A DNA stretch of 64,000 nt from Oceanispirochaeta sp. (GCA_963663385.2 CAXXXD010000002.1:1792001-1856000); one strand, 5' to 3'; counted from the first letter of the stretch, positions 3,475 through 6,567 are shown. Made by a program: numbers and translations. Notes: generated by a model not told the origin, from the sequence alone.

Positions 3475-4167
3475 TCAAAACTGGAGGGATAATACCCTCC
3501 GTCTGTTATTGGTAAACACCCCGTCCACTCCCATTTCCTGCATGGCAGCAAGTTCTTCGGGCAGGTTAACCGTATAAACGAGAACCTTCAGCCCTCTTGA
3601 ATGGGCATCCTCCACTATCTCCCGGCTGATATTCTCCCTGTTCATGTTAAGAGACCAGGCTCCCATGCCATCCGTCAGGGAGGCCAGTCCCAGAGGCAGG
3701 CTGCCGATAATGGGCGAAACCCGTACTTCAGGTCGCAATTCTTTAAAACGCATCAGTTCAAAGTGATCAAAGGAAGAAACCAGAAAATTCTCCCAACTGC
3801 GTCCTTTGCGGTTAATTTCCTCATCTAGGATATGGGAGACTTTAAGGGCTGATCCGTTTCCTTTAATTTCAATATTCAGGGGGCAGCGGCTGTCAATCAG
3901 ATCAATGATTTCCTGCAGGGTCGGAACCTGTTCTCCTTCGCCTGCATCCAGTGCCCTGATTTCCTTAAAAGTCAGGTTCCTTATGAAACCGCTGCCGTTC
4001 GTCGTGGTATCGACTTTATCATCATGCATGACTACGACTTCACCGGTTTTGCAGATAGCCACATCAATCTCTATCATATCAACGGAATCCTTCAGAGCCT
4101 GTCTGATGGATTTCAGTGTATTCTCAGGAGCCAGCTCCGAGGCGCCCCTGTGTCCGATTATCAGCAT
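3475..4167 (-). CDS. Glycerophosphodiester phosphodiesterase (GDPD family)
   Basis: IGHRGAS..PENT, IEIDV, HD, LNIEIK, VYTVN..GVDGVFTN. Confidence 0.93.
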   Translation of the reverse strand: MLIIGHRGASELAPENTLKSIRQALKDSVDMIEIDVAICKTGEVVVMHDDKVDTTTNGSGFIRNLTFKEIRALDAGEGEQVPTLQEIIDLIDSRCPLNIEIKGNGSALKVSHILDEEINRKGRSWENFLVSSFDHFELMRFKELRPEVRVSPIIGSLPLGLASLTDGMGAWSLNMNRENISREIVEDAHSRGLKVLVYTVNLPEELAAMQEMGVDGVFTNNRRRVLSLQF

Positions 4168-4226
4168 TAATATCTCCTATAAAAAGTCAATCATAAGCCT
4201 ATTAACAAGCTTACAATTGAACCGGA

Positions 4227-5339
4227 TTACCCAGTTTTTACGGCATTGAATGCAGCCGCCTGCATCTTCAAGTACTTATCATCCGGAACCATCTTCAACG
4301 GATCAAAGGGTTCACGGGTTTTCAATATGGAGTACACTACCGTACTCATCTTTCTTGCAGAGGCGATAATACTCGTGCCGCTGCCCTTGTTCTTCTTCAT
4401 CGCTCTGTACTTCGTCATGATACGGTAATTGCCAGTCGTTTTCCGAGTTCTAACCATTCCCATAACACACTGAACAAATGCCGTTCTCAGTTCTACAGCC
4501 CCTCTCTTTGTTATATGCCCATGATGAATCGTCTCATTGGAGTTCTGCACCCATGGTACAAGACCGGCATAAGCCGAATACTTCTTGGCACTGGCGTACC
4601 GCTTGATATCATCCGTATAGGCCCTAATAGTCGATGCCGTTATCAATCCGACTCCCGGGATCGTCTGCAATAACTGTACATCCTCATCTTCCTTTACAAG
4701 TTCCAGCAGGACTTTCTCTAACTGCTTGACCTGGTTCGAAACCTGATCTATCGTAGAAAGCAGCGGTTCTATCGCTTTGGCAGCGCTTCCGAAACTCCTA
4801 TGGTCCACGAGACCGATGAGGATGCGCTGCCTTTCTTTTTTACTCTGCAGCGCAGCTCTTTTTGTTTCAATTCCATACCCTAGAAGCAGTCCGTGAACCT
4901 GATTCTTCAAAGATACGACTGATTTAACAAGGATAGTTCTGGATTTAAGAACTCTACGGATATCCTCACTCTCCTGAGAACAAAGCTGTGATTCGGGAAG
5001 CATATCTTTTTCCAAGAACTCTGCTAGAGTTCTGGCATCATGCTTATCCGTCTTTTTCACTGATTCATTTACAACTTTGAATTTCAGTGTATTCACAACC
5101 ACCACCTCAATCCCTGCTAGCAATAGCTTGTTACGGAAGAACCGGGCATTTCCTGTTGATTCCACTGCAGCCCTAACATCAAGGCCCTCTTCTGTATAGG
5201 ACACTGCTTTCTCAAGAAATGCTCTGTAACCGTCCTCAGAGGTCGGATACATTCCTGATTCACAAATGCTTCTATCATCACTCAGGAAACAGACTGTTAA
5301 CTGGGATTTGTGCAGATCCACTCCGATACTCATCTTCAT
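4227..5339 (-). CDS. IS110-family DEDD recombinase/transposase
   Basis: IGVDLHK, AVESTG, KTDKHDA (DEDD); LQTIPGVG..A, AYAGLVP..QNS and HGHITKRG in the Tnp domain; AGGAG RBS 7 nt before the ATG at 5339. Confidence 0.95.
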   Translation of the reverse strand: MKMSIGVDLHKSQLTVCFLSDDRSICESGMYPTSEDGYRAFLEKAVSYTEEGLDVRAAVESTGNARFFRNKLLLAGIEVVVVNTLKFKVVNESVKKTDKHDARTLAEFLEKDMLPESQLCSQESEDIRRVLKSRTILVKSVVSLKNQVHGLLLGYGIETKRAALQSKKERQRILIGLVDHRSFGSAAKAIEPLLSTIDQVSNQVKQLEKVLLELVKEDEDVQLLQTIPGVGLITASTIRAYTDDIKRYASAKKYSAYAGLVPWVQNSNETIHHGHITKRGAVELRTAFVQCVMGMVRTRKTTGNYRIMTKYRAMKKNKGSGTSIIASARKMSTVVYSILKTREPFDPLKMVPDDKYLKMQAAAFNAVKTG

Positions 5340-5344
5340 ACCTT

Positions 5345-5513
5345 CGCTCCTATTGCCTAAAACAGCGCCTGTACGGTGAATTGATTCCATTCTCCTATCC
5401 GGTCTCGAAGACCATTGAATGTTTCGGTCACGGCTCTTCATTCTCCTGTACGGTCTCGGAGACCAGTAAAAATGGCGAACAGTAACCTGGCTGTTCTAAA
5501 CGATGTTTAGAAC
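5345..5513 (-). ncRNA. Candidate IS110 bridge RNA
   Basis: Non-coding left end downstream of a TACAAT -10; 5' hairpin plus two homologous hairpins; boundaries approximate. Confidence 0.55.
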
Positions 5514-5562
5514 ATTGTATCAATCCACAAGCCTATGAAGACTTTTTATCATTCCTCCTGTG

Positions 5563-6567
5563 CTAAGTTGTTTCACGTATTTTTAAATCTGTTGGCATAA
5601 TCATCTCTACGGGGGGAGAATCGGGATCATCCAGAAGCTGAAGCAGTCTAATGGCAGCCAGCTCTCCCATTTTATCAATATGAATATGAGTCGTTGTCAG
5701 GGGGAGGTAGGACATGGATGCCCAGGGAATATCGTCAAATCCGGCAATCCCCAGCGTGGAAGGTACTTTTATCCCCTCCTGTCTGGCACGATTCAATAAT
5801 CCGATTGCCATGGCATCGTTTACGGCAAATACGGCGGTTCCTTCTGCTATCTCATCTTTTATTTCGTCAAAAATCATTTCGCCTGTCTGAAGGGTTGTAT
5901 CTTCCTTATTTAATATAAACGGGGTAAGCCCCGCTTTTTCCATGGACTCTTTATATCCCTGAATGCGCTCCCTGTTGTTGTACCATTCAACAGGCCCTGT
6001 TATATGGATTATTTTCCTGTAGTTCCGGTTTATCAGATGCTCGGTAATGTTGAAAGCGCCAATACGGTCATCACAGATTACCGTATTGGCACGGGTTTCG
6101 GGCAGTTTGTTTTCAAGGAGTACTACCGGTTTTCCCAGTGCCATGATCTCCATAATAAAGCGCGGGCTGAGGCTCTGCCCGCGCAGGATGAATGCATCGC
6201 AGCTGTCGGACTGAATGGCAGGGATCTTTGACGGGTTATTAAAATCTTCCAGTTCTACCGGGATAACCAGACTCTGGTAGCCTCTTTTGCGGAAGGTTTC
6301 ATCAAAAGCCAGGGTGGAATGATGGAAATAGACGGAATCATACTGTCCCATTCTCTGACGGCCGATTATACCGATAAATCTGCCGGTAGACGGCATGGCT
6401 GTCTGAATGATCGGCGAGAAATCATCTTTATGCTGTTTCAATTCGTTCAGTACAAGATCTCTGGTCTTCTGGCTGATACCGGGTTTATCGTTTAATACCC
6501 TTGAAACTGTGGAAAGGGATATTCCCAGTTTATCTGCAATACTTTTAAGTCTGACTCGCTTATCCAT
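5563..6567 (-). CDS. LacI-family transcriptional regulator
   Basis: N-terminal HTH LKSIADKLGISLSTVSRVLN; C-terminal AVNDAMAIG, IAGFDD..LTT. Confidence 0.95.
   Translation of the reverse strand: MDKRVRLKSIADKLGISLSTVSRVLNDKPGISQKTRDLVLNELKQHKDDFSPIIQTAMPSTGRFIGIIGRQRMGQYDSVYFHHSTLAFDETFRKRGYQSLVIPVELEDFNNPSKIPAIQSDSCDAFILRGQSLSPRFIMEIMALGKPVVLLENKLPETRANTVICDDRIGAFNITEHLINRNYRKIIHITGPVEWYNNRERIQGYKESMEKAGLTPFILNKEDTTLQTGEMIFDEIKDEIAEGTAVFAVNDAMAIGLLNRARQEGIKVPSTLGIAGFDDIPWASMSYLPLTTTHIHIDKMGELAAIRLLQLLDDPDSPPVEMIMPTDLKIRETT

Follow-up and report, generated by a model that had tools for sequence, protein, structure and literature searches.

A candidate bridge RNA in the left end of an IS110-superfamily element found in ribosome-binding sites of Oceanispirochaeta

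The 64,000-nucleotide stretch of Oceanispirochaeta sp. DNA analysed here (the window) carries, on the minus strand and directly ahead of an IS110-type recombinase gene, two near-identical hairpin modules. Do these modules belong to a guide RNA and, if so, which DNA does each of them read? A preliminary description of the interval 5345-5514 had proposed a bridge RNA, and this proposal has held up: covariation, both between guides and DNA and within helices, makes it very likely. We consider it highly probable that a bridge (seek) RNA is encoded by the left non-coding end of an active IS110-superfamily element of 1,381 bp, and that the interval forms the central part of this RNA. Sequence comparison further supports a division of labour, in which binding of the target would fall to module 1 and binding of the donor to module 2.

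The element, its ends and its insertion sites

Ten copies of the element, 100% identical (gene and flanks compared), are present in its own genome, and its ends were set by comparing their flanks. On the minus strand, the common sequence begins with the base that follows a left AGGAG (5559-5555) and finishes with a right AGGAG (4178-4174), giving 1,381 bp with one AGGAG counted. In three public DNA runs, 4174-5559 forms one collapsed contig with a depth 8-10 times that of its flanks. No circle junction or empty-site joint was seen in the contigs of four DNA runs, and none of the public runs holding the element is on record as RNA. Some records among the public contigs match the element to ~4706 or ~4757 and then continue into unrelated sequence; these loose ends may mean that those assemblies contain a further copy, partial or diverged, at another place.

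The recombinase carries the two domains expected of the superfamily (PF01548, 8.7e-21; PF02371, 4.6e-19), and its C-terminal domain aligns with the IS621 and ISCro4 recombinases, whose structures have been solved, with an E value of about 1e-15. One of its serines stands opposite the SG-motif serine of IS621, and the KTD..DA of the RuvC-like domain aligns too. The motif reads GLVPWVQNS followed by N, not by the G of the IS1111 motif (GL-P----S(t)G). The non-coding ends differ in length: the right end is short (53 nt) and the left one long, with a leader of ~215-222 nt ahead of the recombinase ATG (215 nt corresponds to 5554-5340, from the first base past the left AGGAG). The features of the element, from left to right in its own orientation, are as follows.

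5555..5561, minus strand: host ribosome-binding site ACAGGAG, left half of the target; the 10 copies have diverging flanks upstream of it
5550..5554, minus strand: GAATG, first five bases of the left end (putative right donor, left terminal extension), the same in all copies
5540..5549, minus strand: left subterminal inverted repeat, 10 bp, perfect, 5 nt from the end
5548-5543, minus strand: -10-like TAAAAA with TGA before it, within the left subterminal inverted repeat
4227..5339, minus strand: recombinase gene, 370 aa, with DEDD RuvC-like and Tnp domains
4187..4220, minus strand: right-end hairpin resembling a terminator, overlapped in its 3' part by TTGACT
4190-4185, minus strand: -35-like TTGACT of the right end
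4174..4188, minus strand: right subterminal inverted repeat (4188-4179), then the terminal AGGAG (4178-4174)
4180-4174, minus strand: ATAGGAG, putative left donor half and core; new ribosome-binding site of the downstream gene
4165..4173, minus strand: right target, consisting of 6 nt of spacer followed by the glycerophosphodiester phosphodiesterase ATG

When the ends are joined computationally into a circle, the junction reads TTGACT, 17 nt, and then the left repeat with its TGA-TAAAAA; 10 bp separate the two repeats. Since AGGAG is common to target and donor, the exact crossover would lie somewhere inside it. We also observed how densely the right end is packed: its 47 nt (4220-4174, minus strand) accommodate the new ribosome-binding site, a consensus-like TTGACT and a hairpin that resembles a terminator and has a T-run. 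Transcription of the downstream gene must restart there or read through.

The window copy lies between a LacI-type regulator gene and the glycerophosphodiester phosphodiesterase gene. All 10 copies stand ahead of a gene and in the gene's orientation, with the right AGGAG 6-8 nt before the ATG, and their left flanks are ACAGGAG in eight cases, GCAGGAG in one and AAAGGAG in one. At the orthologous locus of two congeners the same two genes are adjacent, and the stop codon of the regulator is followed by a single CAGGAG, 6 nt and an ATG. Because these empty sites carry a single CAGGAG with spacer and ATG, the element has entered a Shine-Dalgarno sequence. The same preference is seen in all loci fetched (see below): an ATG follows the AGGAG at 3-10 nt in 66/69 right flanks, most often at 6 nt (33/69), against 945/1,224 in a background taken from the element's own genome, a figure too crude, and too variable between genomes, to bear a claim that the conserved CAT recognizes the start codon.

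This genome contains 1,454 free ACAGGAG sites, only 140 of which have an ATG 5-8 nt downstream, and the restriction to translation starts is therefore far stronger than the 7-mer alone explains. At the two bases ahead of AGGAG (-7/-6), AC is found in 8/10 occupied sites; among the 1,427 AGGAG sites that have an ATG 5-8 nt further on, 140 carry it. Our literature searches on the topic found no paper linking bridge or seek RNAs to the targeting of ribosome-binding sites.

Fold of the leader

The leader folds better than its shuffles (z -2.7). We fetched 76 related loci, with 79-32% protein identity and records labelled Spirochaetia, Desulfobacterales, Treponema, Marispirochaeta, Lentisphaeria and others, and aligned 28 distinct leaders. 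Helices were derived from RNAalifold together with pair counts over these 28 homologues. Four helices are supported, namely a long-range helix (P0), the outer stem of module 1 and the two inner hairpins, each with 2-3 compensatory pairs. Within the four helices 93% of cells are paired (94-100% per helix), compared with 28-44% when the partners are slid. The elements of the fold, in 5' to 3' order, are listed here.

5524..5528 and 5376..5380, minus strand: 5' and 3' strands of P0, which closes the whole two-module RNA
5492..5514, minus strand: 5' hairpin, 10 bp, perfect, loop ATC; a hairpin stands here in 28/28 homologues, with differing sequences
5477..5487 with 5426..5436, minus strand: outer stem round module 1; 10 pairs, 3 compensatory, 96% of cells paired
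5466..5474, minus strand: 5' strand of the putative target loop, CAT plus six variable T-rich bases; CAT in 27/28
5451..5465, minus strand: inner hairpin 1; 5 pairs, 2 compensatory, 97% paired
5400..5414, minus strand: inner hairpin 2; 5 pairs, 3 compensatory, 100% paired
5355..5365, minus strand: mimic of the 5' arm of the 5' hairpin, able to pair with the 3' arm (5501-5491) over 11 bp as an alternative long-range helix

P0 shows compensatory changes in three of its five pairs, one of which is AU 11 times and GC 11 times. The closing pair of inner hairpin 1 is U-G in 27/28 homologues and thus strand-specific. With conserved U-G pairs in 27/28 and 28/28 homologues, the minus strand is the folded strand. 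On this strand a covariance model built for the core reaches 128 bits, on the opposite one 20.9. In the element's own genome this model matches only the 10 copies, and elsewhere it also finds six loci outside its training set, including a copy on a plasmid of Thiospirochaeta perfilievii (123 bits). It gave no match to the Lentisphaeria family or to ISLin1, the layouts of which were both read by eye, and an Rfam search of 4000-5800 (E up to 1) returned no family.

These results bear on the architecture first drawn for the interval. The 5' hairpin (5514-5492), module 1 (5474-5439) and module 2 (5421-5388), all on the minus strand, are correct in position and letters, and the two inner hairpins proposed within the modules are real, as judged by compensatory changes in the 28 homologues. 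The CATT/AATG stems said to close both modules fared worse. They can pair in the window copy, but none of their 9 pairs is compensatory across the 28 homologues; their inner positions are unpaired in 7, 19, 7 and 9 of the 28, and only the outer C-G and A-U are kept.

The 3' arm of the 5' hairpin keeps two alternative partners in 28/28 homologues, the 5' arm and the mimic just ahead of the recombinase ribosome-binding site. The duplex of 5365-5355 with the 3' arm has a mean of -14.9 kcal/mol for cognate and -8.5 kcal/mol for non-cognate combinations (permutation p 2e-4, 28 homologues). This alternative helix excludes the 5' hairpin and crosses P0, so that it and P0 cannot both be simple nested stems; for these reasons it would act as a switch or form a pseudoknot. 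The two partners of the 3' arm could accordingly represent either a switch between guide and messenger or a pseudoknot.

Several of the loci fetched are decayed or truncated (L041, L043, L062, L065, L071), with part of the leader missing or replaced. One of them (L071) has lost module 1. Remnants in three of them (L041, L065 and L071) are still recognized by the model. Recombinases 58-76% identical (L026-L028, L030, L032, L034, L040, L059, L060) come from records labelled Desulfobacterales, Gracilibacteria, WWE3, Dehalococcoidales and Dysgonamonadaceae; such identity across such labels suggests either wide horizontal spread or errors in MAG binning.

Guide segments and alternative explanations

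Three of the four guide segments expected of a bridge RNA are present, reading the target's bottom strand and both strands of the donor.

5443..5449, minus strand: candidate bottom-strand target guide ACAGGAG, 3' strand of module 1, in the sense of the left target
5417..5421, minus strand: candidate top-strand donor guide CATTC, 5' strand of module 2, complementary to GAATG (5554-5550)
5392..5398, minus strand: candidate bottom-strand donor guide ATAGGAG, 3' strand of module 2, in the sense of the last 7 bases of the right end

The ACAGGAG strand has the same sense as the left target and could therefore pair with its bottom strand. More generally, the 3' strands of both modules share the sense of the DNA top strand because their partners would be bottom strands, that of the left target flank for one and that of the right end for the other. 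The difference between ACAGG and ATAGG in the bulges of the two modules, noticed at the outset, is real, and the C/T that distinguishes the two 3' strands falls exactly at the position separating the target ACAGGAG from the donor ATAGGAG.

A guide that reads its target should change with it across homologues, and we compared the 3' strand of module 1 with the left flank at the 23 of the 28 aligned loci where the flank was usable, leaving out three truncated and two irregular loci. The module 1 bulge tracks the flank, as a covariation check on the homologues' non-coding ends had been suggested to reveal: guide and flank match at -7 in 19/23 loci and at -6 in 22/23, with permuted means of 9.05 and 13.8 and p about 1e-4, a value that overstates independence because the homologues are related. 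Positions -8 and -9 give no signal (7/23 and 6/23). The covariation involves few columns, as only two positions of the guide vary. When 225 RNA columns were scanned, without prior selection, for covariation with 26 target positions at 18 loci, the same positions stood out (-7, 14/18; -6, 18/18), along with two further isolated cells that we take as chance. The Marispirochaeta element has the guide TAAGGAG, which equals five of its six flanks at all seven positions and all six at -7/-6. A less favourable case is one Spirochaetia MAG, in which both variable guide positions are matched in only 4/15 left flanks.

On the donor side, the ATAGGAG guide is invariant in 28/28 homologues, and so is the right end wherever it is seen. 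The 5' strand of module 2 pairs with the first five bases of the left end perfectly in 23/28 homologues, with wobbles only in two and with one mismatch in three. Six homologues carry fully compensating variants (CGTGC/GCACG, CATGC/GCATG and CATAC/GTATG), and in the Lentisphaeria family, 33% identical, the left end ATGGT faces a 5' strand ACCGT with one wobble (by eye). The RNA partner assigned to this strand in the preliminary description does not follow the compensating changes, which argues for an RNA-DNA contact and not for an RNA stem. Left guides had been reported as missing altogether. For the target this stands, in that we too found none; for the donor it does not, CATTC (5421-5417) being an opposite-strand guide for 5554-5550.

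The search for a top-strand target guide centred on the T-rich 5' strand of module 1. Compared with the right flank, this strand shows no covariation position by position (23 loci) and no whole-strand pairing in six registers (permutation p 0.29); compared with the left flank it shows no covariation either (23 loci), and the set of all RNA columns against 26 target positions at 18 loci gave no top-strand signal for the target. Occupied sites do pair better with the T-rich strand, with a mean of 6.2/10 positions paired against 4.97 for the 1,427 ribosome-binding-site-like sites and 4.70 for the 1,454 ACAGGAG sites. Foreign guides pair as well, however, and the better pairing is for that reason read as a general A-richness of the spacers. 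In the Marispirochaeta element, the guide of another element suits the right flanks better than the element's own does (4.25 vs 5.42). Pairing of the handshake type by the bases past each 3' guide gave, by eye, a pattern that is inconsistent between families.

The confinement of the element ahead of start codons could have several origins. It is possible that selection removes intragenic insertions, that the A/T-rich spacers are favoured as easily melted DNA, or that the conserved CAT recognizes the start codon.

Some loci depart from the common pattern in other ways. The chromosome of the Spirochaetia MAG just mentioned holds 15 copies (L011-L024, L029), and nine of their 15 left flanks are TATAGGAG, the sequence of the element's own right end. 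The target guide there is TTTAGGAG, unlike these nine donor-like flanks. Either the donor unit also picks targets, through half-site use, or the motif is a common ribosome-binding site in that organism. Another locus (L039, ~2600-2690) has two right ends in tandem, with ~30 nt including TTGACT...ATAGGAG repeated, which could be the mark left when a second copy entered the ribosome-binding site that the first had rebuilt. A third (L064) has a 12-nt duplication within the target guide strand.

We infer RNA production, recombinase binding, circle formation and the crossover position by analogy with IS621, ISEc11 and ISEc21, as parts of a life cycle in which the element would excise as a circle. 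Joining of the right end to the left end would create a promoter (TTGACT, 17 nt, TGA-TAAAAA) from which the leader and the recombinase gene would be transcribed. The leader would then fold so that P0 encloses the 5' hairpin, the stem-enclosed target loop of module 1 and the donor hairpin unit of module 2. The target would be read as NNAGGAG, in which only the two N vary, and the donor as ATAGGAG, and the DEDD/Ser recombinase would exchange strands inside AGGAG. Exchange at this place would bring the element between the Shine-Dalgarno sequence and the start codon, in the orientation of the gene, with the site restored by ATAGGAG.

Could the leader be merely a 5' untranslated region that controls translation of the recombinase or stability of its mRNA, with the AGGAG strands serving as Shine-Dalgarno-like decoys or standby sites? 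The leader lies directly ahead of the ribosome-binding site of the recombinase (5351-5347) and holds two AGGAG strings, its conserved and mutually exclusive helices look switch-like, and any likeness to the insertion site would arise since that site is itself a ribosome-binding site. A translational decoy, however, has no reason to track the host flank at -7 and -6 as module 1 does, and the 5' strand of module 2 follows the element's own end, which its presumed RNA partner does not. Recombinases of the IS110 superfamily are, moreover, known to use such RNAs, as described in PMC11208160, PMC11208158 and PMC11187229. We thus regard a purely regulatory leader as quite improbable; a regulatory role in addition to guiding may exist.

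We give the same low credence to a second alternative, in which the modules act as DNA, either as internal copies of the ends bound by the recombinase or as hairpins of single-stranded DNA. The 3' strands of the modules do repeat the sequences of both junctions, and the element also has subterminal inverted repeats that are presumably bound by protein. But the conserved U-G pairs would turn into A-C mismatches if the other strand folded, the covariance model strongly prefers one strand, and a double-stranded site needs no hairpin covariation. Judged by sequence alone, the modules may still act as single-stranded DNA of the minus strand.

The pairing first proposed, in which the 3' bulges would contact CTTGT as donor and CTTAT as target with one G:T, is scarcely tenable: both strings exist near the ends (~5530 and ~4196), but the flanks of the 10 copies and the collapsed contig place them inside the element, as part of an extended imperfect repeat and neither at the donor junction nor in the target, and it is the sequences of the real junctions that the bulges reproduce, without a mismatch and in the same sense, for 7 nt.

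Significance and comparison with known systems

Systems with bridge or seek RNAs have been known since 2024, and very probably the present element is one of them, with its layout as the unusual part. To our knowledge, no guides other than bridge and seek RNAs determine both of the DNAs that recombine. They are under development as tools for genome writing. The practical value of the present RNA is modest, because the programmable part of its target guide would amount to two bases. Its interest lies elsewhere. The family of this element mixes features by which the literature cited here separates two described families, namely the position of the RNA, the order of the guides and the end repeats, and therefore bears on the kinship of the IS110 and IS1111 families and on which of these features are tied to each other by mechanism. 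It may further illustrate how sparing of RNA-DNA pairing a natural system can be (seven bases, confined to a single target strand), and it offers a mobile element that would aim at ribosome-binding sites yet restore them, so that the host suffers less harm.

A wider reading is possible, and we put it forward tentatively, as rather doubtful in its full form. It would make the element part of a deep-branching lineage related to ISLin1, with records labelled Spirochaetia, Desulfobacterales, Lentisphaeria and others, and with a third layout in which the RNA lies upstream, the guide order is of the IS1111 type and the subterminal repeats are long. Homing to Shine-Dalgarno sequences and rebuilding them would be lineage-wide, the target would be read through 7 nt of the bottom strand with two programmable bases and no top-strand guide, and the alternative helices would switch the transcript between guide and messenger. 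If this were true, landing before start codons would need a further determinant, such as recognition of the start codon or spacer, easily melted DNA or the context of translation initiation.

In IS900, unlike here, the recombinase gene comes to lie antisense to the gene that is entered, and long end repeats are not known. The IS900 group, mycobacterial members of IS110, provides a precedent for aiming at translation initiation signals (Doran et al. 1997, as cited in PMC8141618). As to the RNA, 86 covariance models describing 32,190 bridge RNAs of varied structures are reported in bioRxiv 10.64898/2026.10.21.760802, and the class described here may be among them.

The element resembles IS621 and ISCro4 in having its RNA in the left end, upstream of a recombinase with DEDD and Tnp domains, and in the order of a 5' stem-loop, a target unit and a donor unit, each of the units being a hairpin with putative guide strands on both sides. 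The guides would likewise read opposite strands of two half-sites, joining of the ends in the circle would again create a promoter, and the region of the serine aligns. The differences concern the guides and the ends. In IS621, the bottom-strand (left) guide is on the 5' side of the hairpin and the top-strand (right) guide on its 3' side, according to PMC11208160 and PMC11208158, and ISEc21 is described with the same guide order (PMC11187229). Here the order is reversed, with the top-strand guide of the donor on the 5' side, its bottom-strand guide on the 3' side and the bottom-strand guide of the target also on the 3' side; a right-target guide like that of IS621 was not found. In the IS110 group, inverted repeats are given as 2-3 bp and the core as CT (PMC11208160), whereas the present element has perfect 10-bp subterminal repeats 5 nt from each end and shares the 5 nt AGGAG. 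Further, its donor unit stands in the multiloop closed by P0, unlike that of IS621, which has its own internal loop.

Several of these departures are shared with IS1111. In the seekRNAs of this family (ISEc11, ISPa11, ISKpn4, ISPst6), the top-strand match is described as lying 5' of the bottom-strand match (PMC11187229), as CATTC lies 5' of ATAGGAG in the donor unit here. The layout had first been judged unlike IS621 and possibly a distinct guide architecture; the first part is correct, and the second is the guide order already described for IS1111-type seekRNAs (PMC11187229). IS1111 elements are also reported to have subterminal inverted repeats, usually of 11-13 bp, with asymmetric terminal extensions of 7 and 3 bp (PMC11187229). 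Our element has subterminal repeats of 10 bp, longer if imperfect pairs are counted, with short terminal extensions, and the 10 bp between its repeats in the circle would add up to 7 + 3, although the shared AGGAG hides the split. A donor unit in a multiloop is a further likeness, since donor-binding bases are placed there in many IS1111 elements according to Durrant et al. (PMC11208160). Unlike in IS1111, the RNA here is upstream of the recombinase, which has 370 aa compared with 330-350. The non-coding region lies downstream in almost all IS1111 members covered by PMC11187229, with upstream cases such as ISMtsp17 as rare exceptions, the RNA of which goes without analysis in the part of Siddiquee et al. 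that describes them (PMC11187229).

The closest named element is ISLin1 of Leptospira interrogans, which is ~30% identical over 93% of the recombinase sequence. The source data of PMC11187229 place it in the IS110 family, with at most 24.7% identity to the ~200 ISfinder recombinases covered here. The copy that we read, on a Leptospira interrogans plasmid (L093; 380-680 and 1760-1870), lies in a tandem host repeat of ~40 nt; ISLin1 thus inserts into a host repeat, unlike the present element with its ribosome-binding sites. In an inverted-repeat search of this locus, the short terminal repeat of ISLin1 does not figure among the 25 longest pairs listed; by eye a subterminal inverted repeat of 10/11 can be recognized. 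ISLin1 shares with our element the non-coding region upstream of the recombinase. Its strand 3' of the hairpin has, by eye, the sense of the left flank in 9/10 bases, and a second strand, ATAGGAG, matches its own right end. The leader strand TTCATAGA matches the left flank, and the layout of ISLin1 looks the same as that found in Oceanispirochaeta.
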